From positions 13,013 to 77,012 of the IMG/VR virus record IMGVR_UViG_3300032259_000002: DNA of 64,000 nucleotides. One strand, 5' to 3'. Source of the DNA: a virus. Its lineage: Duplodnaviria > Caudoviricetes. The notes beneath the pieces were generated by a model. That model was not told where the DNA came from, made no database searches, and was given only the letters and a program-made list of their open reading frames with translations. Positions 36,238 through 59,569 of the stretch are shown one piece after another (position 1 is the stretch's first letter; every line of letters begins with the position of its first letter). Both the position numbers and the translations under genes were made by a program.

Positions 36238-36516
36238 TTAAAATCTATTAGTATTGGGTATCTTATCACATGGCCCCTCGGTATCTCTTTTATTTTCAAA
36301 AACTAGCTCATCGACCAGCTCCAACTGGGGCTCATCGAAATATTGGGGATCTACTATTTTCCCTTCATGGAGCGTTTCAGATTTTACTCCATAGGTATTG
36401 CAGTTATATAACCACTGAGACCTGCTATTTATTATACCAGTAAAACCAGAAATTACATCCTTTACCCTATCTCCAAGTTCAAAGACAAAATCATACTCTC
36501 CTTTTGTTTCTGACAT
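36238..36516 (-). CDS. Hypothetical protein (MSETK start shared with queD)
   Basis: FELGDRVKDVISGFTG...YFDEPQL, an SH3-like small phage protein. Confidence 0.7.
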   Translation of the reverse strand: MSETKGEYDFVFELGDRVKDVISGFTGIINSRSQWLYNCNTYGVKSETLHEGKIVDPQYFDEPQLELVDELVFENKRDTEGPCDKIPNTNRF

Positions 36517-36598
36517 ATCTTTACTCCTTTTTAATTATTTAATCCTTTATATATAATACCCTTATTTTAAATTAACGTTGGTTAATCATTGAAAATAA
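36501..36598. repeat. 98-bp direct repeat, copy 1
   Basis: Matches 50006-50103 with one mismatch. Confidence 0.95.
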
Positions 36599-37531: not shown

Positions 37532-37693
37532 TCAATCTTCAAAATGTTTGTTGTGGTCTGTTCTCCATTTATACTCCTGATCTGCTTCTGTTGCGATAGA
37601 ATCGTCTTCGCAATTCTCGGCCAGCCATTTAAGATATCCGGAAGGTACTTCTTCTAAATCTTTTCCCTTATATTTTCCCCAGGGCATTATCAT
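37532..37693 (-). CDS. Small protein with an MPWGKYKG motif (DUF3820-like)
   Basis: Hand translation MIMPWGKYKGKDLEEVPSGYLKWL... (53 aa). Confidence 0.7.
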   Translation of the reverse strand: MIMPWGKYKGKDLEEVPSGYLKWLAENCEDDSIATEADQEYKWRTDHNKHFED

Positions 37694-39990
37694 TTTTTAT
37701 TTCTCCTTACTCTTTTATCCTTAGTTGAGGCATTATCAAATAAATTGCTTTGTCTATTTCTTGCATTTTTTAAATTCTTAATAGCTTGTTTAAAATAGGA
37801 TTCTTTTAATTCCGATCCTATAAACAATCTTCCCATTTGTAAAGCAACATAACCCTCACTGCCTATACCAGTAAAAGGACTATAAACTAAATCACCTTCG
37901 TTACTCCATAATCTAATAGCTCTTTCAATTACATCTAATTGTAAAGGACATATATGTTTTTCGTCTTTCTGATCCCTAGCAGATCTATATTGTAAGGTAT
38001 TAGATTGCCTAATATCCATCCAAACAGGAGAGGCATACTTTTGCCAAACATGATGAGAGTACTTTATACCAGAAGCTTTAGGCTCTTTTGATTCTTCCCC
38101 TATAAAATCAGTAAAACCATTAGGATTAGATATTAATTCTTGATTTTTACCTGGCTTTCTAACTGTGATTAAATAATCAGGACAACCAGCTCTTGACATA
38201 GATGAATCTTTTTGAATTTGTTTATGCATCAAACCAAGTGCTTTAGTTCTAGTAACTTCTATAAGAGGATCTTTCCATATGATATGACGACTATGATATA
38301 TCCATCCATATTTTTGAAATAATCTAAGCAAATCCCCTGGAAAATCTTTCAAACCTATTACGCCATCTCTTTCTTTCATACTGGGAATATCCATACAATG
38401 AAATGAAAGGAGTCTTCCTGGTTTTGTTATCCTAAAAAGATTCTCAACAAGATATCCAAAATGAATAAAAAATTCATCATAGTTTTTTGAATTGCCCATA
38501 TCTCTTTCAGAATCAGAATAGGTGTATAACTCTGCAAAAGGGGGTGAAAATATAGAGTAATGAATGCTATCATCTTTTAATCCTGAACTAACATCAACAC
38601 AATCACCTAAATACATTTCCCATCTTTTGCCTGATTCCTTATATTCATTATATTCCTTTTTCTTTTCTTTTCTTATTTTTTTAATCTCTCTTTTTGTTAT
38701 TTTTGACATATGATTTACCATACCTTTTGCCATAATTTCCGCATCAGCTTCCTTTCTTTTTATATTATTCACCACTGCTCCTTCTAAATCAGAAGTTACT
38801 ATCCAAACATTAACTTTTCCTATTCTACCAAATCGCCAACAACGCCTAACAGCTTGATAATACTTTTCCCAGCTATCTGACAAACCTACAAAAATCATAT
38901 TACCACAATGTTGCCAATTCATCCCATAACCGGCTATTGATGGTTTTGTAATGAGTATTCTTGTTTTCTCATTAGAAAAATTAATCATTTCTTTTTTCTT
39001 ATAGTCATTTTTATCTGAACCAGTTATTTCAATAGAATCTTTTATTCTTTTTCTTAATTCCTGACTTTCTATATTAAGATCACACCAAATGAGCCAAGGA
39101 TTCTCTTTATCTGAGTTAACCAATTCCACTACCTTACCTACTCTTTCATTTAAACTTTCTTTTCTAGCAATTCTTCTTTCTGAAATAGTCTTTGCGGCAA
39201 CCTTGAAAAACTGTCCTTTAGGAGCCTTGCCTTTAGACTTAACAACGCAATCATTAATTACTAACTTAGGTAACTTGAAATCACTATCATCATAACCCAA
39301 ATCAGAAGGTTTTCTAAGGTAAATAGCCCAAGAACAAACCCATTTCCAATATTCTGATTCTGCATGTCCTTTTAATCTCCATTTAGAAGTTTCTCCTCCA
39401 TCATGAACAAAAAACATTGATAGCATCTGAACCCTAGTCATTGCATTTAAGAATTCAGAATGATTACCTAATTCCATATGATCATTAGGGGCCGGAGTGG
39501 CCGTACATGCTAATTTATAAGAAGTACCACTAAATGCTTTAATTATTTCGGTTCTTATCTTTCCAGAATATGCCTTTAATATGGAACTTTCATCGAGTAC
39601 TATTCCATCAAAATAATTTGCATCAAAATTATGAAAATTTTCATAATTAGTAATATTTATCCCTTCTTTTATATCATCTTGTTCCCTACAAATATTAACT
39701 TTTATCTTAAATTTAATACCTTCTCTTACTGTTTGATCTGATACAGCCAAAGGTGCTAAAATTAAAACCGATCCTTTAGTATATAAACAAACCTGTCTTG
39801 CCCATTCAAGCTGCATAGGGGTCTTTCCTAATCCACAATCAGCAAAAATAGCAGCCTTTCCTTTCCTTAAAGCCCATATGACTATATCTTTTTGAAAATC
39901 AAATAATTTTCTATTGATTTTTTCAACAGGATCAAAACCCGAATCAATTTCTTGTACTAACTTTGAAGCAATAAAATTTTCATATTCCAT
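37690..39990 (-). CDS. SNF2-like helicase fused to an N4/N6 DNA methyltransferase
   Basis: FADCGLGKT, LDESS, ACTATPAPND, YYQAVRRCWRFG; then YLGDCV, SIFSPPF, GDLVYSPFTGIGS. Confidence 0.9.
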   Translation of the reverse strand: MEYENFIASKLVQEIDSGFDPVEKINRKLFDFQKDIVIWALRKGKAAIFADCGLGKTPMQLEWARQVCLYTKGSVLILAPLAVSDQTVREGIKFKIKVNICREQDDIKEGINITNYENFHNFDANYFDGIVLDESSILKAYSGKIRTEIIKAFSGTSYKLACTATPAPNDHMELGNHSEFLNAMTRVQMLSMFFVHDGGETSKWRLKGHAESEYWKWVCSWAIYLRKPSDLGYDDSDFKLPKLVINDCVVKSKGKAPKGQFFKVAAKTISERRIARKESLNERVGKVVELVNSDKENPWLIWCDLNIESQELRKRIKDSIEITGSDKNDYKKKEMINFSNEKTRILITKPSIAGYGMNWQHCGNMIFVGLSDSWEKYYQAVRRCWRFGRIGKVNVWIVTSDLEGAVVNNIKRKEADAEIMAKGMVNHMSKITKREIKKIRKEKKKEYNEYKESGKRWEMYLGDCVDVSSGLKDDSIHYSIFSPPFAELYTYSDSERDMGNSKNYDEFFIHFGYLVENLFRITKPGRLLSFHCMDIPSMKERDGVIGLKDFPGDLLRLFQKYGWIYHSRHIIWKDPLIEVTRTKALGLMHKQIQKDSSMSRAGCPDYLITVRKPGKNQELISNPNGFTDFIGEESKEPKASGIKYSHHVWQKYASPVWMDIRQSNTLQYRSARDQKDEKHICPLQLDVIERAIRLWSNEGDLVYSPFTGIGSEGYVALQMGRLFIGSELKESYFKQAIKNLKNARNRQSNLFDNASTKDKRVRRNKK

Positions 39991-39999
39991 TTTTTTCTC

Positions 40000-42597
40000 C
40001 TATTCAAAATCTGTGGTATCAGCTACTAAAATTTCCTCAATATCTGCCCAATTCTCACCAACACTGACTTCCACCGCAAGAGGAACATTCACAAAATCAA
40101 AAGAAGTACAAGACATCTTTTCTGATATGATATCGATATCCTCTTCTAAAGATCTATCCGGTATAAAAAAAGATAGGTCATCATGAATGTTCATTCTTGC
40201 TTGAAACTGAGGCTTCTTCTCCTCATAAGCATATAAAGAAAGCCTGTTCATACCATCAACAACAACGTAAGAAGCCGTTCCTTGTATTGGAGCATTTATT
40301 AGTTCATTGTAACTCAAAGGGCCGACTCTTCTTGCTCCAGTTAAAGTCTCCACATATCCATGCTCATTGTAAAATTTCTGGAGCCGGCCCTGCCAATTCT
40401 TCACTCCTTTGAACTCTCCCCAAAAATCCTTTACCAATCTATCAGCCTTTTCTATAGGTAATCCCAGGGAATTAGCCACGGAAGTAAAATGAGATCCAAA
40501 AAATAAAGGAAATACCCATTCATTTTTAGATCTTTGTCTAAAATCTTTCCATCCTTTTTCATCTAACTCAGAAGACTTTCTTACCCCGGCACATCTAGGA
40601 TGGATCTTTAAAATCCTTTCCGCCCATTCCATGTGTATATCATATCCGGTCTCAATGGCATTACAAAAAGTTTTATCCTGGCTGGCCATAGCTATGATTC
40701 TTGCTTCTAGCTGACCATAGTCAACTGCAACAAACCAAAATCCTTCAGGTGGTACTATCATTCTCCTAATCTCTTTATTCTTTCTTTTAGGATAATTCTG
40801 CATATTAGGGTGTTCCGAACTTGTGCGACCGGTGGAAGTAAAGAGGTGATTGTAATCTGCATGAAGTAATCCATCCGGATAAATAACTTTATCTATTGAG
40901 TCAATATAAGTAGATTTTACTTTTGATATCTCTCTAAAATCTAAAATGAGACCTGCTTCTTTATGTCCTTTATCATTAAAGCTTTTTAAAACTTCATCAT
41001 CGGTACTATAAGATCCTTTACTCGTCTCTTTTACTGACTTCAATCCCAAAATGTCTCTAAATAAAAGAACCACTGAATCAGGAGAAGCGGGATTAAAATC
41101 ACCGAACTTTCTACCAAATTTTTTAACTGATTTAGCTTTAAAAATCTTAGCCTCTATATCCTCCAACTTCTTTTGGTATTCTTTTGAAAAACCATCCACG
41201 GTATCAAAATCAACCGGGACTCCCTCTGTTTCTGTCACAGCTAAAGTAGTAGCAGTCCTAACCAGATGATGATATGTCCATTCCTGGCTTTTATGAAGAA
41301 GAGCGTCCTGCCTTTCTTCAAGCAAATGAGTCCATTTAGTATCCATTCCATTATACAAAAGAGTTTTATCTAAAGGAGCATTTATTAAGTTTTTTCTATC
41401 CAGATCGGTAAGAGGCTTTAACTTAAAACCAAAATGTAAAAGGCATAAAACATCTAAACTAAGCATGCCTCCACTCTTTTTTGTTCTCTGATCTAAAGTG
41501 TATGCCTGGGCCATTGTATCAGCCCATATACCAGACCGCAAAGGTCTTTGTCCATAATAATGATAAAACCATATTGCCTCAAATTTAAGGTAGTGGCAGC
41601 TCTTCTTTCCCCGGCATTCCATCAAGAAATTACTTATCAAATCTTTTATAGCTTTTCTACTTTTCTCATCCCCTTTCCAAGCTTTGGGGTGATCTACCGG
41701 AAAAGCTATGGTATTTTCAAAAGTACCAATGGCTATGGTCAGAATCCAAGCATCTTTGCATCCAAAAGGTTTTAACTTATTGGTCTCTATGTCAATCGAT
41801 ACAGAAGATTCTTGTTTTAGTTTCTCCAGTTCTTTCTCAATCTTTTTAAATTCAGAAGAACTCTTTCCTTCAAAAATCTTTATACCTTTATCAAAATCTT
41901 TATCGTAAACTTTAGCCTCTGGAGAATCCTCATCCATTATAAAGAAAGCAGCTCTTTGTAAATCCATATCAAAGGCTTTTTCATATTCATTTTTAAATTT
42001 ACTATTATTCTTTTTCTTTAGTAAGGAGGGAGTTTGTATTGGAAAATACCAGCAAGTGTGATTCCCTATTTTAATCGGTAATCTTCTGCCTCGCCATTCA
42101 TCTATATTACTATAACCTATCACCCACTTTAAAGAGATGGGCCCAAGTCCGATAATGGCAAAGGGTTTTGTTTTCTGAATATCATCTTCTATTGATTTCC
42201 TACAGCACTCTATTTCTGATTCTTTAGGTTGCCTGTGTTTGGGAGTAGGGCATTGAACGCAGTAATTAAATCTAATACCTATGGTCTTGTTTAAATCTCT
42301 CTTGGATTCAAATAGATCTGGAAAGGCTCTTCTTAAGGATTTTCTTAGAACCATTCCAGATTCTCCTTTAAAGTGTATGCCCGTATCCTCTTCTCTAGGG
42401 CCGGGCATTTCTCCTAAAATATAAATCAAAGAATCAGCATCACCATCTGCTGGAACACAAGGCTCATTCACTTGATTAAGAGAACAGGCTTTGCATCCTT
42501 GCTCTCTTAAAAGATTTTTTGGTATTCTACCTAAATTTTGTTTCTTGGCTTTTTTTGTTTCTTTCTTTTTCTTATCTTCAGCAAAGAAAAATCCCAT
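40000..42597 (-). CDS. polA: Family A DNA polymerase with N-terminal uracil-DNA glycosylase-like and 3'-5' exonuclease domains
   Basis: CKAC...GEMPGPRE...ECC (family-4 UDG); DIET (ExoI); TGRTSS.HPNMQN, DYGQLEARI, RSKN..VFPLFFG, NAPIQGTA, NIHDD. Confidence 0.93.
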   Translation of the reverse strand: MGFFFAEDKKKKETKKAKKQNLGRIPKNLLREQGCKACSLNQVNEPCVPADGDADSLIYILGEMPGPREEDTGIHFKGESGMVLRKSLRRAFPDLFESKRDLNKTIGIRFNYCVQCPTPKHRQPKESEIECCRKSIEDDIQKTKPFAIIGLGPISLKWVIGYSNIDEWRGRRLPIKIGNHTCWYFPIQTPSLLKKKNNSKFKNEYEKAFDMDLQRAAFFIMDEDSPEAKVYDKDFDKGIKIFEGKSSSEFKKIEKELEKLKQESSVSIDIETNKLKPFGCKDAWILTIAIGTFENTIAFPVDHPKAWKGDEKSRKAIKDLISNFLMECRGKKSCHYLKFEAIWFYHYYGQRPLRSGIWADTMAQAYTLDQRTKKSGGMLSLDVLCLLHFGFKLKPLTDLDRKNLINAPLDKTLLYNGMDTKWTHLLEERQDALLHKSQEWTYHHLVRTATTLAVTETEGVPVDFDTVDGFSKEYQKKLEDIEAKIFKAKSVKKFGRKFGDFNPASPDSVVLLFRDILGLKSVKETSKGSYSTDDEVLKSFNDKGHKEAGLILDFREISKVKSTYIDSIDKVIYPDGLLHADYNHLFTSTGRTSSEHPNMQNYPKRKNKEIRRMIVPPEGFWFVAVDYGQLEARIIAMASQDKTFCNAIETGYDIHMEWAERILKIHPRCAGVRKSSELDEKGWKDFRQRSKNEWVFPLFFGSHFTSVANSLGLPIEKADRLVKDFWGEFKGVKNWQGRLQKFYNEHGYVETLTGARRVGPLSYNELINAPIQGTASYVVVDGMNRLSLYAYEEKKPQFQARMNIHDDLSFFIPDRSLEEDIDIISEKMSCTSFDFVNVPLAVEVSVGENWADIEEILVADTTDFE

Positions 42598-43712
42598 TAC
42601 TCAAGCTCCTTCTTCTTTATCCTTTTAGATTCATTAGTTCTCATATTATCAAACCATTGTTCTTTTATTCTTGTTGCTATTTGGGCCATCATCACTGGGG
42701 GAACTGACATGCCCATAAGATACTCAGGTTTTTTATCATTAAAATTATAATCAAAGGGAAATGTCCCTGCCATTAAAATTTCTTTGTTAAACAATGTTCT
42801 TTCAATCTCATAATCATAAGGTAATCCATTTGCTCTTATTGTGGGAAGAACTTTATACGGATGTGATTTTACTTCATTAAAATATGATGATTTTGGATGA
42901 TTTTCAGAAAAATTGTTCCCAGGACTTGTTAATTTCCAATACTTACTGATCATTTTGCTTAATCCAATTGCATCATTATTTCCTTCAATTTGCCTTATCT
43001 CTTTAAATGGTATTCCAGGTTCATCAAATCTTAAATCAAGATAAGGTATTGGATTAAAAAATCCCATAATACCTTTGCTTTTTATTTTATTTACTAAATC
43101 TTTTCTTAATGCTATAAAAAATACCCTTTCCCTTCTTTGTGGTACTCCCATTTTTGAAGCATCAAGTAACCACTTTTCAACATAATATCCGGCATCATCA
43201 TATTGTTTTCCTATTTCAAAAAGATATTTCTTAGCATTTCCTAAAATAATTCCTTTGACATTTTCAGCAATTACTATTTTAGGTTGTAATCTTTTTGCAA
43301 GATTAATAAAATCAAAAAATAAAGTATCAAGGATTTGTTCTGATTGACCTTCCCTGAATTTCTTTTTCTTGCCCCAATCTTTTTCCCTGTTACCAGACAT
43401 ACTAAAAGAACTACAAGGAGGACTGCCATCAAGTATATCCAAGTCAAATAACTCTTCTGGTAAATCTGTTCTATTTTTAAATTCTTGAATAGGTTCAATA
43501 AATAAATACTTTGGTTTATGATTAATTTTATAACATTCTGCCATTTTAGGGTCAATCTCATTTGCCCCTAAAACATCAAAACCTGCAAGCTTATAGCCCA
43601 TAGTGGGAGCAAAACCACCACAAGCAAAACAAGAAAAAACCTTTAATCCATTTTTCTTTATTTTTTTAAGGTCTTTTAATGACCATTTATATGGGAATCT
43701 ATGATTAGGCAT
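42597..43712 (-). CDS. C5-cytosine DNA methyltransferase
   Basis: FACGG, DILDGSPPCSSFS, AENVKG, QRRERVFF, MSVPP. Confidence 0.93.
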   Translation of the reverse strand: MPNHRFPYKWSLKDLKKIKKNGLKVFSCFACGGFAPTMGYKLAGFDVLGANEIDPKMAECYKINHKPKYLFIEPIQEFKNRTDLPEELFDLDILDGSPPCSSFSMSGNREKDWGKKKKFREGQSEQILDTLFFDFINLAKRLQPKIVIAENVKGIILGNAKKYLFEIGKQYDDAGYYVEKWLLDASKMGVPQRRERVFFIALRKDLVNKIKSKGIMGFFNPIPYLDLRFDEPGIPFKEIRQIEGNNDAIGLSKMISKYWKLTSPGNNFSENHPKSSYFNEVKSHPYKVLPTIRANGLPYDYEIERTLFNKEILMAGTFPFDYNFNDKKPEYLMGMSVPPVMMAQIATRIKEQWFDNMRTNESKRIKKKELE

Positions 43713-43734: not shown

Positions 43735-44820
43735 CTACTCATCTTTAAAACCCATCACTAAATGAAAAAAACTATCTGATTTTCCGGCAAGCATTGGTAT
43801 ACTATCTTCTCCGGTGGAATAACAGAATGCTATCTCGTCCACTGCTTGAAGGATGTCTAAAATATGATTGGCATCCATTCTACAAGAAATCTCTTCTTCT
43901 GAAATATCTTCTTCAAATACAATAGACTCTTTAATGGCCCCATAACCACTTTTTCCGGATACTAAAAGAGTCTCCTCCTCAGAATCAAGATGGACAATCT
44001 GATCTGTTTCTTTAGAAGTAAGTAAAGTGGTTCTTTCTATGGCAGTTAAGAGATTTTCAGGTATCTCCTGAAATTCATTTTCCTCCTCATCCCAATGAGC
44101 CTCTATGACTGCTTCATAATCAAGGTAGTCTACCTCAGTTAGAAGCTTAGTGTAAACATACACTCCCTCAAAACAAGCAAATATAAAATCCTCACTAAAA
44201 TAGAGTTCAGCAGAAGTATCATTAAGCTCCTTGCTTATATCAAGTATAAGTCTACAAAATACTTCTGGGAGAAGCATTTTAATAGATTTTTTCCCTAATG
44301 TTTTTTCAAGGGAGTATCTGGAGATTCTTTGATTATCGGTTGAATATAGATGGGCTCCCTTTTTATCAGATACAAGGGTTATTCCGAATTGATTTCTTTG
44401 TAAAGAATTTTTACTTACTGAGATGAGGGTTTTCTTTATACCCATTAAAAAATCTTCTGATAAAGTAAAAGATGGGAGATCGTCGATGTCAGGTATTTCA
44501 AAAATAAAATCAGCTTCAGGGAGGCAGGCAAGTTTAGCATTTGATTTGCCTATTTTAATATTGACCTCATTCCCTTTCTGGTTTACTGCCATTTTATCTG
44601 AGGAATAACTGCTAAGAAGTTTTATGAGAAGTTCCCCAGGAAGACCACAATTCTCAATAGTAACAGCATCCTCATAATCAATTATGATTCCCTGTATTCC
44701 GTTAAAAGCTATGATCTCTTCATCCGTAAAACAGAAATGCGATAGTATTGGTACTATGTCCTGCGTAGATAGACAAGGTCTGGCCATATTCAACTTTTCC
44801 AATAAAGACGTTCTTTCCAT
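43735..44820 (-). CDS. dnaN: Sliding clamp (DNA polymerase III beta-like)
   Basis: 361 aa; PILSHF, YSTDNQRI, DYLDYEAVI; three-domain size; clamp loader nearby. Confidence 0.8.
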   Translation of the reverse strand: MERTSLLEKLNMARPCLSTQDIVPILSHFCFTDEEIIAFNGIQGIIIDYEDAVTIENCGLPGELLIKLLSSYSSDKMAVNQKGNEVNIKIGKSNAKLACLPEADFIFEIPDIDDLPSFTLSEDFLMGIKKTLISVSKNSLQRNQFGITLVSDKKGAHLYSTDNQRISRYSLEKTLGKKSIKMLLPEVFCRLILDISKELNDTSAELYFSEDFIFACFEGVYVYTKLLTEVDYLDYEAVIEAHWDEEENEFQEIPENLLTAIERTTLLTSKETDQIVHLDSEEETLLVSGKSGYGAIKESIVFEEDISEEEISCRMDANHILDILQAVDEIAFCYSTGEDSIPMLAGKSDSFFHLVMGFKDE

Positions 44821-44872
44821 TATTTTCTCCTCACTCTTTTAGATTTATTAACAACTTTATAAATACCATTAA

Positions 44873-45019
44873 TTATATATATATAGGCAAAAAATCTGAT
44901 TGTAAAGTTTTTATAAGATGGTAGGATAAAAGCCTTTTCTTTGATTCCATTCTTGTGAGAGACTCACCGGGGCCATTTCCTTGAGTATCCTCAAGCCAGG
45001 TAGCTAAGTATATTTTCAT
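44873..45019 (-). CDS. DpdA N-terminus-like mini-gene, unit F (48 aa; truncated by a (TA)6 tract)
   Basis: MKIYLATWLEDTQGNGPGESLTRMESKKRLLSYHLIKTLQSDFLPIYI*. Removing one TA extends it to ...KSKRVRRK* with TAATG coupling to the clamp gene. Confidence 0.7.
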   Translation of the reverse strand: MKIYLATWLEDTQGNGPGESLTRMESKKRLLSYHLIKTLQSDFLPIYI

Positions 45020-45155
45020 TTATTAATTTCCTAAAAACTTTTTTATCTGATTCTTTGTAATACTGATAGCTAAATAGTATTCTGACCAAATAACTCTCTC
45101 TCTCGATGTAAGTATCTTCTTTATTTTTAAAATTTACTGATAAATATATTTTCAT
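44991..45155 (-). CDS. DpdA N-terminus-like mini-gene, unit E (54 aa, in frame)
   Basis: MKIYLSVNFKNKEDTYIERESYLVRILFSYQYYKESDKKVFRKLINENILSYLA*; G(AG)5 tract in frame. Confidence 0.7.
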   Translation of the reverse strand: MKIYLSVNFKNKEDTYIERESYLVRILFSYQYYKESDKKVFRKLINENILSYLA

Positions 45156-45325
45156 TTAATAAACCTGACAATTCCTTTTTCCACATAAAATTTAAAATCA
45201 AATCCTTTGGTAATGGAACCTACTATATATATATGAGATAAAAGTCTATGACTATTTAATACTTTTGTTAAAGTATGTCCCTGATTAATATCTGGTTCTG
45301 GCTGAGTAGCTAGATATATTTTCAT
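45152..45325 (-). CDS. DpdA N-terminus-like mini-gene, unit D (57 aa, in frame)
   Basis: MKIYLATQPEPDINQGHTLTKVLNSHRLLSHIYIVGSITKGFDFKFYVEKGIVRFIK*; (AT)5A tract in frame; ATGA-coupled at both ends. Confidence 0.72.
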   Translation of the reverse strand: MKIYLATQPEPDINQGHTLTKVLNSHRLLSHIYIVGSITKGFDFKFYVEKGIVRFIK

Positions 45326-45475
45326 TCTTCAAAAACACCATTAAGGTATTGCTTAAATAGTTTTCTAGATAGATTCCTAACATAGTAAAAAGAAATCAAA
45401 TTAGTCAGGGATTTCATAATTAAAACTCTCTCTCTGATTAGAAACTACTACATCCACTGCTAAGTATATCTTCAA
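45322..45475 (-). pseudogene. DpdA N-terminus-like mini-gene, unit C, frameshifted at (AG)5
   Basis: TTG start, LKIYLAVDVVVSNQRE; adding one AG gives ...RERVLIMKSLTNLISFYYVRNLSRKLFKQYLNGVFEE* with its stop overlapping the unit D start. Confidence 0.7.
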
Positions 45476-45631
45476 TTCTTTTCCTCTATATGTTTTAAAA
45501 TAACTTTAAAATCTTGATCAGCCATACCGCCTATTCTATGAAAATGAAAAGACAGTAACCTCTTTGACTTCTTTCTCAGAAGAAACCTCTCTCTCTTCAA
45601 TCAAACAAGTACCGGCAAAATATATTTTCAT
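45472..45631 (-). pseudogene. DpdA N-terminus-like mini-gene, unit B, frameshifted at (AG)5
   Basis: MKIYFAGTCLIEERE; adding one AG gives ...RFLLRKKSKRLLSFHFHRIGGMADQDFKVILKHIEEKN* overlapping the unit C start. Confidence 0.72.
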
Positions 45632-45800
45632 TACTTATCTCTTTTATAATCTATTATAACTAGTAAACTTTTTTTCATTTTATTAGAAGTTAGGAAATGA
45701 TCTGCAAAACTGAATAATCTAGAATATTTAAATTTTAATAACAACTCTCTCTTCCATCAACATTCATGATAGAATAACCACCTGCTAAATATATTTTCAA
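45631..45800 (-). pseudogene. DpdA N-terminus-like mini-gene, unit A, frameshifted at (AG)4
   Basis: TTG start overlaps the dpdA stop; LKIYLAGGYSIMNVDGRE; (AG)3 or (AG)6 gives ...LLLKFKYSRLFSFADHF...YKRDK* with TAATG coupling to unit B. Confidence 0.7.
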
Positions 45801-46597
45801 AAGAAATTACCTCTCAGTAAAGATCTATTGAAAGGCCTATCTGGAAGGTACTTTTCAAGATCAAGAAAATAAATAATATTAAGCTCATCTCTTTTTTTAT
45901 AATCAGCAGAAAGCTCTTCGTAGTTATAGCCCTTTTCCTCGAAATAATGGAGAATATGGTCTTGGACTATTTTTGAATAATTAGAAAAATGCTGGCCTTC
46001 TATACCAGCTTTGGGAGATTTATCAGATACCACTACCTTATGTGGTATTTTTGAAAAATCGTAACCATCTCTATTTCTGATAGGAACTATGACCGAGCCG
46101 AAGCGGCCGGTCTTTACCCAAGAAGTACTATCAACAGAAAACCAAGGATAGCGGAGAAGTATCTTCAGTGAGGTAACTCCAAAGCCATGTATCTTACAAA
46201 CAGGCCAGCCTTCTTGATCAGTCAGATACTTAGCAAATAAACCGTCCAGCCAGGGCATCAACTTTTTGCCCGGAGTCCCCACCATACCACCAAGGGCTAT
46301 GTAATCGTATCCCTCTTCTAAATATTTTTTAAGGTATTTTATATCGGTATTAAAATGAAAACAAGGTAGTGGATTCAATCCTTTTTTCTCAAGGTATTTT
46401 TGATTCTTATAAGTGGCTTCCGGATCTCCAATCACATCAAGATTGGCATACACTGTTAAATACTTTTTGTACTCTTTAATAAAATCAGCATATTCATCTA
46501 TACTTATTTCAATACCTTTTGACCAAGCAGAGAAAGCACCACTATCAAGAAATAAATCTACTTTATTTTCTGACTTATCACTTCTTCTTTTTCTCAT
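45797..46597 (-). CDS. dpdA: DpdA-like DNA 7-deazaguanine transglycosylase (TGT fold), lacking the usual N-terminal segment
   Basis: LFLDSGAFSAWSKG, NLDVIGD, PCFH, YIALGGMVG, KIHGFG, FSVDSTSW; directly after queC. Confidence 0.85.
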   Translation of the reverse strand: MRKRRSDKSENKVDLFLDSGAFSAWSKGIEISIDEYADFIKEYKKYLTVYANLDVIGDPEATYKNQKYLEKKGLNPLPCFHFNTDIKYLKKYLEEGYDYIALGGMVGTPGKKLMPWLDGLFAKYLTDQEGWPVCKIHGFGVTSLKILLRYPWFSVDSTSWVKTGRFGSVIVPIRNRDGYDFSKIPHKVVVSDKSPKAGIEGQHFSNYSKIVQDHILHYFEEKGYNYEELSADYKKRDELNIIYFLDLEKYLPDRPFNRSLLRGNFF

Positions 46598-46631: not shown

Positions 46632-47324
46632 CTAATCCCTTTCAAAAAGAGGGTCTTCGATGCCAGCATGATCAAAACCTTTTTGTCTGAGCAGACAAGC
46701 ATGGCAGTGACCACATGGAGGATATTGCCCATTATAGCAGGTATGAGAATAGGCCAAGGCTTCCATACAGCCTTCAAGCTTACAGGCTAAATCCACTGAA
46801 TCCCTTTTGGTCATAAACATTAAAGGGGTATGTATATCAAAGACAAAATCAGAACCATAAATACCTTCCCCAAGAGCTTTAGTCATAGCCACTATAAAAG
46901 TATGCCGGCAATCATGGTAGCCTGCAAAGTCCTCTTGACAAACTCCGGTTACCATATCAGTTATACCAAGACAGGCCGCTCGGTTAGCAGCTATAGTCAG
47001 AAAAAGAATATTCCTGGCTGGAACAAAAGTTGGCTCTACCCCTTCTGGTAATTCTTCATGAGATGGGTATTGACCTACTTCATAATCACTATTTACAAGA
47101 GGGCTGGTTCCTTTAAGAACTGGGCCCAACTCAATGACCTCATGACTTGCTACCCCTGCCATTTTTGCTATCTTTTTAGCAGACTCTAACTCAATAGAGT
47201 GTTTCTGACCATAATCAAAAGTAACGGCATGGACTTCATCAAATTTACTTTTAGCCCAGAATAGGCAAGTTGTGGAATCCTGGCCACCGCTCAAAACAAC
47301 AAGGCATTTGCTCTTCTCTTTCAT
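46632..47324 (-). CDS. queC: 7-cyano-7-deazaguanine synthase
   Basis: LSGGQDSTTC, FDYGQKH, TFVPARN, YHDCR, TPLM, SHTCY...CGHCHAC. Confidence 0.97.
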   Translation of the reverse strand: MKEKSKCLVVLSGGQDSTTCLFWAKSKFDEVHAVTFDYGQKHSIELESAKKIAKMAGVASHEVIELGPVLKGTSPLVNSDYEVGQYPSHEELPEGVEPTFVPARNILFLTIAANRAACLGITDMVTGVCQEDFAGYHDCRHTFIVAMTKALGEGIYGSDFVFDIHTPLMFMTKRDSVDLACKLEGCMEALAYSHTCYNGQYPPCGHCHACLLRQKGFDHAGIEDPLFERD

Positions 47325-47341: not shown

Positions 47342-48148
47342 TTATAATTTTATTAAAGACATCAACTCTGCTCTAGCAGCAATGCCTTTTTGGCTATCAT
47401 CTTTAAACACCCCAGTAAGAGCGGAGGTGGTCATTATTGAGCCCTGTTTCTCCACTCCCCGCGAAGTCATGCAAAAATGTTGGGCCTCAATAATACAAGC
47501 AGCACCTATACACTTAAGATTCTCCATTAAGGCATTTACCGCTTGTTTTCCTATTCTTTCCTGTATCTGAAGCCTTCTACTAAAAATTTCAAAAAGTCTT
47601 GCAAGTTTAGATACTCCAATTACTTTCTCATTTGGAATATAAGCTAAGTGAAAGCGACCAAAAAACGGCAACAGGTGATGCTCACAAGTAGAATAAAACT
47701 CACAATTTTTAAGGAGTACCAACTCGTCATACCCTTCCGAATCAAAAACCTTGAATACTTCTTTGGGATCTAATTTGTAACCAGAAAAAAGATGGTCGTA
47801 AGACTTAAGTACTCTTTCCGGAGTCTCAAGAAGTCCCTCCCTTTCCGGATCATCTCCAAGATAGGAAATGGTAGCTCTCACATTCCTTAATAGGGCTTCT
47901 TTGTATAAGGAGGCATCTCCATCTACTGATAAGAATCTCCATTTCTTCTTATCCAAGGATCTTCTTATTAGATTTTTCTCTCTTTTCTCATAATAACCAA
48001 AAGCAACATTAGTTAACCTATCTACTCCTATAAGACAAAAGGTTTCTCCTACACCACCAGAAGGTACTCTTTGGGCTACTTTTATAGGAAAATTCTCTGA
48101 TGCGTGTCCCCGTCTTTCTAACCAAATATCCTCTAAACTCTTTTCCAT
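47342..48148 (-). CDS. folE: GTP cyclohydrolase I with an ~80-aa N-terminal extension
   Basis: GDDPEREGLLETPERV, YSTCEHHLLPF, GVSKLAR, RRLQIQER, HFCMTSRG. Confidence 0.96.
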   Translation of the reverse strand: MEKSLEDIWLERRGHASENFPIKVAQRVPSGGVGETFCLIGVDRLTNVAFGYYEKREKNLIRRSLDKKKWRFLSVDGDASLYKEALLRNVRATISYLGDDPEREGLLETPERVLKSYDHLFSGYKLDPKEVFKVFDSEGYDELVLLKNCEFYSTCEHHLLPFFGRFHLAYIPNEKVIGVSKLARLFEIFSRRLQIQERIGKQAVNALMENLKCIGAACIIEAQHFCMTSRGVEKQGSIMTTSALTGVFKDDSQKGIAARAELMSLIKL

Positions 48149-48168: not shown

Positions 48169-48594
48169 TTATTCCCAAGGGAAAACTATCCATCTATCAG
48201 CCGGCATTTCTTCAACAAAAAAAGAAGGCTCACATCTGGTAGAAGATTTTCGATAAACAACAGCTGAATCCTCAAAACCAAGATTGTTTATATAATTAAG
48301 AGTACCGCCTGAATCAACAAGATCATCAACTACCAAAAAATCAGTAGGTATTGTTTCTATATTATTGTGCTGAATCAGCTCTTGCCTTTTTTTACAAGAG
48401 GAATATGATTCAAGGCATAGAGTTTGAACATTTCTTATATTAAGTAGATGCGAAATAATTCCTGCCACAAATAAACCACCTCTTGTAACAGCAAGTATTC
48501 CTGGAATTACTGCTCGGTCTTCTGCTATTTTATTAGCAAGTATTCTGCAATCTTCTTCGAACTGGTTCCAAGTTACTACCAATTTATTTTCCAA
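48169..48594 (-). CDS. Purine phosphoribosyltransferase (Gpt/Hpt-like)
   Basis: LAVTRGGL, FLVVDDLVDSGGT PRPP loop, WIVFPWE. Confidence 0.9.
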   Translation of the reverse strand: MENKLVVTWNQFEEDCRILANKIAEDRAVIPGILAVTRGGLFVAGIISHLLNIRNVQTLCLESYSSCKKRQELIQHNNIETIPTDFLVVDDLVDSGGTLNYINNLGFEDSAVVYRKSSTRCEPSFFVEEMPADRWIVFPWE

Positions 48595-48661: not shown

Positions 48662-49426
48662 TTAACCGTTAATCTCTTCAAGAATCTTCATAATGGCGTG
48701 AGCCTGACCATACTGTATACCGAGAGTGCTTGGACTGATGGTGTAGCCTTCCTTGGCAACTTTCTCTCCAATCTTCTCTTTATCCCACTTTGGGTGCTTG
48801 CAGGTATAGTACTGAATACGTGAAATGGCCGAAGGCTTTTTGTCTTTCTTTTCCTTCTTAGGCTTTTTCTCAGCCTTACCCTTACCTTTAGACTTGCCCT
48901 TCTTGGCAGGCTTTTCTTCTTCCTCTTCCTCTTCCTCAGGGTCTTCCTCAGGCTCGGATTTTTTGGATTTTTTCCCTTTAGAAGAAGACTTGCCCTTACC
49001 TTTAGACTTGCCCTTCTTTGCAGGCTTTTCCTCTTCCTCTTCTTCAGGGTCTTCCTCTTCCTCTTCTTCAGGGTCTTCCTCTTCCTCTTCTTCAGGGTCT
49101 TCCTCTTCCTCTTCTTCAGGGTCTTCCTCTTCCTCAGGCTCGGATTTTTTGGATTTTTTGCCTTTAGACTTGCCCTTCTTTGCAGGCTTTTCCTCTTCCT
49201 CTTCATCAGATTCCGAATCAGGGAAATCAGCAACAGCCTTGTTCTTCTCAAGAGCACTTACGGCTTTATTCAGCCAATCTTGGGCCTCTTTAGAAAGACC
49301 ATCAAACTTCTTGTCAGAAAGATCGTCTGACTCGTCTGCCAGCCTTTCAAGATATTCCTGGTAATCCTCTCCTTTGTTTTGTTTAATCTTGATAGCCTTT
49401 TCCAGTTCTTTTCTTATAACACTCAT
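48662..49426 (-). CDS. Highly charged protein with tandem DPEEEEEE and KPAKKGKSKGK repeats
   Basis: 24-bp tandem repeats at about 49030-49135; AGGAGG RBS. Confidence 0.75.
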   Translation of the reverse strand: MSVIRKELEKAIKIKQNKGEDYQEYLERLADESDDLSDKKFDGLSKEAQDWLNKAVSALEKNKAVADFPDSESDEEEEEKPAKKGKSKGKKSKKSEPEEEEDPEEEEEEDPEEEEEEDPEEEEEEDPEEEEEEKPAKKGKSKGKGKSSSKGKKSKKSEPEEDPEEEEEEEEKPAKKGKSKGKGKAEKKPKKEKKDKKPSAISRIQYYTCKHPKWDKEKIGEKVAKEGYTISPSTLGIQYGQAHAIMKILEEING

Positions 49427-49643: not shown

Positions 49644-50021
49644 CTAGCCCCTAACTCTGGCCCAGCTTTTACGCGTCTCTTTAAGGGCTACCTCTTCCAG
49701 TTTTATTCCCGGATGCGATTCAGATAGTCTTTTCTGAATCCTATTAAAAAAAGCTACGACCATTATCTCGGCAGTGGGCATCACAAAGGAATCATTCAGC
49801 ATAGCATGGTCATACTTATCTTCAATCTCTTCAGAGATTATCAATTTAAGATCTCCGTAATCAACAACCATCCCCATGTCATCCAACTGGGAAGATGATA
49901 CCGTAACCAAGCCTTCATAGGTATGTCCATGTAAATTCCGGCAAGCTCCTTTATGATTAGGAATATAATGAGCCGCCTCAAAACTAAACTCCCTGCTTAT
50001 TTCAACTTTTGTTTCTGACAT
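49644..50021 (-). CDS. queD: 6-carboxytetrahydropterin synthase
   Basis: FEAAHYIP...CRNLHGHTY, DHAMLN, PTAE, LKET. Confidence 0.96.
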   Translation of the reverse strand: MSETKVEISREFSFEAAHYIPNHKGACRNLHGHTYEGLVTVSSSQLDDMGMVVDYGDLKLIISEEIEDKYDHAMLNDSFVMPTAEIMVVAFFNRIQKRLSESHPGIKLEEVALKETRKSWARVRG

Positions 50022-50103
50022 ATCTTTACTCCTTTTTAATTATTTAATCCTTTATATATAATACCCTTATTTTAAATTAACGTTGGTTAATCACTGAAAA
50101 TAA
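50006..50103. repeat. 98-bp direct repeat, copy 2
   Basis: Matches 36501-36598 with one mismatch. Confidence 0.95.
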
Positions 50104-58804: not shown

Positions 58805-59569
58805 TTAACCCTCCTCATCTCTCCAATCATCGGAGAATATAAATTTATGAATCTGAAGATTGTACCCAATTCCCCAAAGCGGGCAAATACTATCCTTCAT
58901 CCAATTAAAAAGTTCAGAAGCATCAATTCCCCCACCACAGGGGCTGAAATAGATCTTGGCTTGAGAATTAAATCTTATAAAACCTGCCGCCTTAATAGCG
59001 TTAATAAAATCTAATCTATCTGAAATAACAAATTTTACAAAACAATTACTTGGTAAATCCATGTAATTAACCGGCTTCACTTTAGTGGAGACTTTCCCAG
59101 CAGATGGTAGTTTCCAATCCAGTATAAAAGATAGATTATCCTCTTTTCCTACACGGCTGGCATGTTGAAGAAGATCTTCAACATCATGTAGACCATTTGT
59201 CTCTATTGTTATGAAGTAATCCCTTAATAAAAGCTTCTGTATTAAAGATATCATAGAGCTTCCATATGATTCAAAAGGCTCTCCTCCGGTTATAGTTATT
59301 TTCCTGACTCCTCTACCTATCTTTTCCACTTTATCCAGAATATAACTGACAGATAAATCCTCTCCCCCTTTCCAAGAATATTTGGTATCGCAATACTTAC
59401 AACCAGCAGTGCAACCGGCAAACCTTATAAAGACCGACCAAGCCCCCTGGGCCTTTGGATTTACTTCCCCATCTACTGATAAAAAGATAGATGTTATTTT
59501 TAGCATTTCATTTTTTAAAGAAATCCCACCTGTCCCACTGCCCTTTATTTCAAAATCACCTTCCTTCAT
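58805..59569 (-). CDS. queE: 7-carboxy-7-deazaguanine synthase (radical SAM)
   Basis: IFLSVDGE, FIRFAGCTAGCKYCDT (CxxxCxxC), ITITGGEP, IETNG, DWKLPS, KFVI, LQIHK. Confidence 0.95.
   Translation of the reverse strand: MKEGDFEIKGSGTGGISLKNEMLKITSIFLSVDGEVNPKAQGAWSVFIRFAGCTAGCKYCDTKYSWKGGEDLSVSYILDKVEKIGRGVRKITITGGEPFESYGSSMISLIQKLLLRDYFITIETNGLHDVEDLLQHASRVGKEDNLSFILDWKLPSAGKVSTKVKPVNYMDLPSNCFVKFVISDRLDFINAIKAAGFIRFNSQAKIYFSPCGGGIDASELFNWMKDSICPLWGIGYNLQIHKFIFSDDWRDEEG

Follow-up and report, generated by a model that had tools for sequence, protein, structure and literature searches.

Slippage at simple repeats in bacterial DNA methyltransferase genes (phasevarions, Type III mod) produces on and off states and epigenetic heterogeneity. 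Among phages, Sorensen et al. are said to have described in 2021 hypermutable polyG tracts in Campylobacter phages, which create mixed populations. Contingency loci have also been described in coliphages, including the T2 DNA-glucosylation gene agt, which is switched by a simple repeat, and one example in the same preprint toggles a DNA-modification enzyme to escape host defence (Gomez, Barrick and Waters, bioRxiv 10.1101/2025.10.21.683753). The phage enzyme DpdA1 is well characterised (PMC6884629, PMC10516641). Repeat-driven phage contingency loci and DpdA1 are thus already known, and what is new here is the comparison across 80 related loci.

The locus analyzed here lies in a stretch of 64,000 nucleotides (the window) of an IMG/VR viral contig, linear and 77 kb long, which comes from a sediment metagenome and has an estimated completeness of 76%. 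As in the contingency loci of the preprint, which undergo reversible frameshifts by polymerase slippage, the simple repeats are intragenic. However, the preprint loci are single genes in cultured coliphages, while the window contains an array of six modules for one split enzyme, each with a tract of its own; the window system, whose switching is predicted, is also mostly dinucleotide and recurs across a clade of uncultivated phages. Relatives of the window phage resemble the Campylobacter phages in having G7-8 or C7-9 runs, here in module genes, but the Campylobacter tracts are reportedly in receptor-binding and other structural genes, whereas those of the window are in parts of a DNA-modification enzyme. 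The position of the repeat inside the open reading frame of a DNA-modifying enzyme is shared with the phasevarions, which are bacterial, concern methylation and consist of single genes with longer tracts, whereas the window system is viral, has a predicted base exchange and consists of interchangeable modules.

The DpdA1 loci of the Queuovirinae and 9g-like phages have in common with the window the gene order FolE, DpdA, clamp, polymerase, and the preQ0 genes (PMC6884629, PMC10516641, PMC10484667). In cultured phages DpdA1 is a single polypeptide with a fused N-module, whereas in the window this module is detached, present six times and repeat-bearing. The searched text of PMC6884629 and PMC10516641 contains no mention of a split enzyme or of N-terminal module genes.

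Gene neighbourhood and the DpdA core

All genes across the window were on the minus strand. The order of the neighbourhood was QueD, an acidic repeat protein, a phosphoribosyltransferase, FolE, QueC, DpdA, the six mini-ORFs, a sliding clamp, a C5 DNA methyltransferase and a family-A DNA polymerase. The main genes were:

43735-44820, minus strand: sliding clamp (DNA polymerase III beta-like), directly downstream of the array
45797-46597, minus strand: DpdA core, 266 aa, a DpdA1-type 7-deazaguanine DNA transglycosylase by homology
46632-47324, minus strand: QueC, preQ0 synthesis gene upstream of DpdA
47342-48148, minus strand: FolE, preQ0 synthesis gene upstream of DpdA
49644-50021, minus strand: QueD (6-pyruvoyl-tetrahydropterin synthase family)
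58805-59569, minus strand: radical-SAM protein, candidate QueE

The preQ0 biosynthesis genes FolE, QueC, QueD and the candidate QueE were therefore co-located with DpdA. The array region had no blastn match among 50,697 phage records, and in all contigs retrieved with the exact DpdA and clamp proteins the arrays were identical to that of the window.

Several other features of this neighbourhood were recorded. A phosphoribosyltransferase gene (PF00156, E 2e-10; 48169-48594, minus strand) is located within the folE-queC-dpdA operon, and may provide a salvage step for the released guanine or 7-deazaguanine base. Between it and QueD is an ORF of 254 aa (48662-49426, minus strand) with periodic repeats of 18-24 nt, in which GAA and GAG abound on the coding strand; the protein they encode is acidic, rich in lysine and without a match to any family. 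A direct repeat of 98 nt (97/98 identical), found at 36501-36598 and 50006-50103, flanks a 13.5-kb replication/modification block; it covers gene ends, an AT-rich box and gene starts, and may be a duplicated promoter or leader. Near the polymerase there is a helicase domain fused to an N6/N4 DNA methylase (37690-39990, minus strand) and the C5 DNA methyltransferase (42597-43712, minus strand), so several DNA-modification systems coexist in this phage.

The DpdA core matched phrog_887 (E 6.6e-63) and was 43-45% identical over 85-89% of the length to DpdA of the Queuovirinae and Escherichia 9g-like phages (tblastn). Residues D18, S19, G20, D54, H81, H137 and D156 of the core were invariant across 32 and across 60 homologues. 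The core begins 15 residues ahead of the DSG strand, without the N-terminal beta1-alpha1-beta2 module, and there is no module upstream of it because QueC ends only 34 nt away. Since the module is encoded separately, the window enzyme appears to be a split form of DpdA1.

Judging by alignment, mini-ORFs A-F are paralogues of this N-terminal beta1-alpha1-beta2 module (MKIYLA...RLLSY) of DpdA1-type enzymes. The initial annotation had proposed that the mini-genes were DpdA-related parts, and the proposal is borne out by their match to the module that is fused in the DpdA of cultured phages and in about half of the relatives. The idea that they were decayed remains of a longer DpdA C-terminus was rejected, as they align to the N-terminal module of the fused enzymes. 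Units D, E and F matched no family in Pfam or PHROGs. A profile of the module found 132 representative proteins among 1.8 billion, mostly 45-75 aa in length, and in the whole 77-kb genome its matches were confined to the array.

Among approximately 70 relatives, roughly half had the module fused to DpdA and half had a core-only DpdA like that of the window. The in-frame fusion to the DpdA N-terminus was found in L005, L014, L010, about 35 other loci and Pseudomonas phage JG054, where the module makes up the N-terminal 45-60 residues, immediately before the D-S-G strand. Stand-alone homologues of the module flank DpdA in L002, L003, L004, L010 and L012. Relatives that were found via DpdA had one to six module genes, positioned before DpdA, after DpdA or after the clamp.

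The fold was examined in an AlphaFold model of the fused relative L010, whose DpdA is ~49-52% identical to the window protein. The model had a pLDDT of 90, with moderate values for the N-module (57-79), and a TGT-like TIM-barrel fold: it matched Z. mobilis TGT with Z 12.8 and an rmsd of 3.0 over 204 residues, and the bacterial DpdA 7ui4 with Z 12.8 and an rmsd of 4.7 over 223 residues. Neither the core nor a fused relative had more than chance-level hits when its sequence was searched against the PDB. Residue 49 onward of the model aligned to residue 95 onward of Z. mobilis TGT, which places the module at the position of TGT beta1, the loop-helix motif and beta2. A core without the module would accordingly be a barrel minus two strands, and would need a mini-protein in trans.

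Other arrangements of the module were also seen. Some DpdA proteins carry two, three or four tandem N-modules, each with its own internal Met (P0053, P0021, P0130, P0114; L025, L080), although there is room for only one module beside the D-S-G strand; P0130 is from a high-GC organism. One N-module was fused to a sliding clamp, and two phage contigs each contained two tandem DpdA paralogues (L074, 2037-3805; L086, 1958-3885).

Repeat tracts and reading frames of the six units

The six units and their tracts were located as follows:

45631-45800, minus strand: unit A, with a TTG start that overlaps the DpdA stop; 21 aa as assembled, frameshifted
45472-45631, minus strand: unit B; 31 aa as assembled, frameshifted
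45322-45475, minus strand: unit C, with a TTG start; 24 aa as assembled, frameshifted
45152-45325, minus strand: unit D, in frame, 57 aa; top match to the family profile (E 1.2e-18)
44991-45155, minus strand: unit E, in frame, 54 aa; 29-nt overlap with the start of F; profile E 2.1e-9
44820-45019, minus strand: unit F; 48 aa as assembled, with its stop inside the tract at 44873
45745-45752, minus strand: tract A, (AG)4 on the coding strand, (CT)4 on the plus strand
45587-45596, minus strand: tract B, (AG)5; (CT)5 on the plus strand
45426-45435, minus strand: tract C, (AG)5; (CT)5 on the plus strand
45224-45234, minus strand: tract D, (AT)5A; T(AT)5 on the plus strand; just past the RLLS motif
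45094-45104, minus strand: tract E, G(AG)5, encoding E-R-E-S; (CT)5C on the plus strand
44874-44885, minus strand: tract F, (TA)6

All six tracts that had been claimed for these units were present, each at the coordinates given, when the sequence was read on the plus strand, where the CT tracts correspond to AG because the genes are on the minus strand. There were 19 dinucleotide tracts of at least 8 nt in the 64-kb window, six of which were within the array, and all five tracts of at least 10 nt fell in the 880-bp array stretch, which is 1.4% of the window. Given the codon usage of this phage, the probability that E-R-E is encoded as a pure AG run is 0.086, and none of the 27 E-R-E tripeptides outside the array was encoded in this way. 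The codon choice in the window exceeds what the E-R-E motif needs.

Units A, B and C each have a MKIYLA-type start and then a stop within 21-31 codons. Past this stop another frame is open, with an RLLSY-type motif and a stop that overlaps the next start codon, and the family profile matches B and C each as two complementary halves in different frames. The earlier claim that these three units go out of frame exactly at the tract holds for the presence of a frameshift; the shift can be placed only to windows of 22 nt (A), 39 nt (B) and 42 nt (C), in each of which the tract is the sole simple repeat, so its exact position is the most economical reading rather than a proven one. The remaining statements on the frames agreed with the sequence: F is truncated by a stop inside its (TA)6 tract, D and E are in frame, and none of the broken copies carries a second lesion.

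The initial annotation had further stated that a change of one repeat unit restores each broken copy, and this was reproduced by editing in silico. Removal of one AG unit from A gave 55 aa with a TAATG overlap with B; addition of one AG unit gave 53 aa with the RLLSF motif and a TTGA overlap with C for unit B, and 51 aa with an ATGA overlap with D for unit C. Unit F with (TA)5, that is, minus one unit, encoded 65 aa with a TAATG overlap with the clamp start and regained the C-terminal Y-I-I-x-G motif of the family. In D and E a one-unit change in either direction truncated the product. In other words, a one-unit edit switched between full-length and truncated products in six of the six units.

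An alternative genetic code as the explanation for the stops was rejected, because both TAA and TGA are found at unit boundaries, and each boundary has a start codon. All six units (starts at 45800, 45631, 45475, 45325, 45155 and 45019) begin with almost the same 17-20 nt. Recombination between such short identities could add or delete units, in keeping with a copy number that varies among the relatives. Over their whole length the units have diverged too far for Tandem Repeats Finder to report the array as a tandem repeat.

Repeats and frameshifts in related loci and other samples

The survey covered 80 non-redundant related loci (494 kb), in which module regions made up 5.2% of the DNA. The modules contained 31 of the 51 dinucleotide tracts of at least 10 nt (26 of the 31 being AG), an 11.8-fold enrichment, and 16 of the 26 G/C homopolymers of at least 7 nt, an enrichment of 11.9-fold. 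Nineteen of the 48 tract-bearing modules (40%) were frameshifted, compared with 11 of the 107 tract-less modules (10%); these calls came from matching a regular-expression motif, and among the 11 tract-less ones some are probably false. The 29 tract-bearing modules that were in frame exceeded the one third expected from drift. The P values, which ignore the kinship of the loci and overstate independence because the relatives are phylogenetically related, were 1e-22 for the dinucleotide tracts, 1.5e-12 for the homopolymers, 5e-5 for the frameshifts (Fisher) and 1e-4 for the in-frame modules. These data support repeat-linked breakage of modules as a family-wide and statistically strong trait that involves two different repeat chemistries. 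The same tract-linked frameshift pattern was found in 21 independent loci from many metagenomes.

In L010, a different phage, two modules were broken, at (AG)5 and at (GA)7, and the downstream frames kept the motif and the stop-start overlap; an (AG)7 module of the same phage was in frame with DpdA, and two more modules with (AG)5 were also in frame. A repeat was present within the module immediately 5' of DpdA in six relatives. The fused frame was on in L010, and in L019, L020, L036, L038 and L045 it was off, leaving the core-only form from an internal Met.

Comparison of tract length with related genomes had been suggested as a check on the initial annotation, and a difference was found among L019, L020 and L036, which are ~90% identical. 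Their DpdA-fusable module contains ~5.5, 8 and 9 GA units, respectively, while 140 nt of its flanks are conserved and free of other indels. In another module of these phages, C8 gives an intact frame and C7 a shifted one. In the near-identical pairs L080/L081 and L083/L092 the indels were outside the modules (in a GAA-rich repeat and at an N-gap). The difference between L080 and L081 was a 27+3-nt indel in a GAA-rich repeat similar to the 254-aa ORF of the window.

For the window phage itself, sequencing runs were compared by means of contigs. Two assemblies, a Logan contig (depth 84) of the probable source run and a separately built megahit contig (76,979 bp), both matched the window exactly across the array. 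Runs X2 and X3 covered parts of the array at a depth of 2-5. An X3 contig, from a different sample and study, was identical over 269 nt save for (TA)5 in unit F; this difference, seen at a depth of 2, hints that tract length varies between samples of the window phage, (TA)5 versus (TA)6. The lengths of tracts A and C in the window recurred in two other samples, which indicates that the states are not wildly unstable. Contigs of X2 and X3 broke off at, or close to, tract B (45587/45588), tract E (45097) and tract A (45757); these ends fit branching of the assembly graph at variable tracts, and fit low coverage equally well.

Proposed switching and alternative explanations

The reading preferred here, with a probability of roughly 0.6, is that the tracts are repeat-driven contingency loci acting on alternative N-modules of a split DpdA1. 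The 266-aa core, without the first two barrel strands, would be supplied with alternative N-modules by the six tandem mini-genes, each with a perfect dinucleotide repeat early in its frame or at the end of it. Slipped-strand mispairing during replication of the phage DNA would add or remove a repeat unit and thereby turn a module on or off; in the state captured by the assembly, D and E would be on, A, B and C off, and F truncated. The modules would complement the core in trans, and switching, presumably frequent and reversible, could diversify or tune 7-deazaguanine modification as a bet-hedge against host defences. In the six relatives with a tract in the module 5' of DpdA, the same process would toggle between a fused and a core-only enzyme. 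Stop and start codons overlap from one unit to the next, so a module that is off may, to judge from the arrangement of the genes, also leave the following unit translationally uncoupled. Classical bacterial phase variation usually involves longer tracts than these of 4-6 units, so the rates may be modest.

A serious alternative, although an unlikely one, is hot-spot decay without selected switching, in which redundant paralogues on their way to loss are knocked out first at their most mutable sites, and the repeats arise incidentally from a charged E-R-E (or a G-G-G or P-P-P) motif. L003 and L002, among other relatives, do have the conserved charged motif with no tract in it, the presence of several modules per genome implies redundancy, and the unchanged tracts A and C in two other samples are consistent with decay. 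Decay does not account as readily for broken copies that lack a second lesion and that mostly keep the stop-start overlap in the shifted frame, as 13 of the 19 shifted tract-bearing modules did. It is also at odds with the perfect tracts of up to (AG)8, (AT)9 and C9 that are kept in intact and broken copies alike, with the excess of in-frame modules over drift, and with a codon choice beyond the need of the motif. Finally, the two unrelated repeat chemistries are each enriched ~12-fold and occupy different positions. At least four repeat types or positions were distinguished, namely AG at E-R-E, polyG at G-G-G, polyC at P-P-P, and TA/AT after the second strand, which argues for repeated, independent gain of mutable tracts.

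A further proposal is that the array is a combinatorial specificity switchboard, in which alternative N-modules lead to differing target motifs or modification densities and slippage leads to mixed phage subpopulations. Each N-module would rebuild the part of the barrel that lines the sugar-phosphate pocket, as well as the dimer interface, and the resulting 7-deazaguanine patterns would hedge between CRISPR and restriction of both the classical and the modification-dependent kind. From where it sits in the barrel, the module could plausibly alter activity, dimerisation or target context, and DpdA target motifs differ between phages (PMC10484667). Taken as a whole, this proposal is considered quite doubtful.

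It is improbable that the apparently broken units are recoded, that is, made full-length by programmed ribosomal frameshifting or by transcriptional slippage on the repeat. The downstream frames do remain open and coupled, and RNA polymerase slippage on long homopolymers is known, with G8 or C9 runs present in some relatives. However, the shifts needed in the window are in both directions (-1 for A versus +1 for B and C), as they are across the relatives (17 one way and 13 the other), AG repeats are not known to act as a slippery site, and the tract length differs between relatives at the DNA level.

That all six units are really in frame and the breaks are sequencing or assembly slips is highly improbable: repeats are classic sites of indel error and the low-depth contigs do end close to or at three of the tracts (B, E and A), but two independent assemblies of a sample with ~84x Illumina-type data agree exactly in tract length, which makes an assembler slip unlikely, the pattern is repeated in the 21 independent loci, and short reads are not prone to errors at dinucleotide repeats as short as 4-5 units.

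The specificity or activity of DpdA may reside in the barrel segment that is here detached, present in several copies and putatively switched one copy at a time, and the module array offers ready-made natural chimeras. The contingency-locus idea would be extended beyond single genes of laboratory coliphages: to environmental phages of a whole clade, to tracts of dinucleotides besides homopolymers, and to modular parts of a DNA-hypermodification enzyme. If the proposed switching is real, "consensus" phage genomes hide epigenetically mixed populations, which bears on the prediction of escape from restriction and Cas9. It would also bear on genome annotation, where such units are now called short orphan ORFs or pseudogenes.

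The AG tracts at 45094-45104, 45426-45435, 45587-45596 and 45745-45752 are also runs of GA. GA has been reported as the strict target motif for the DpdA of phage iggy (PMC10484667). It may be speculated that, if the window DpdA prefers GA as that of iggy does, the switch tracts themselves would be densely modified.
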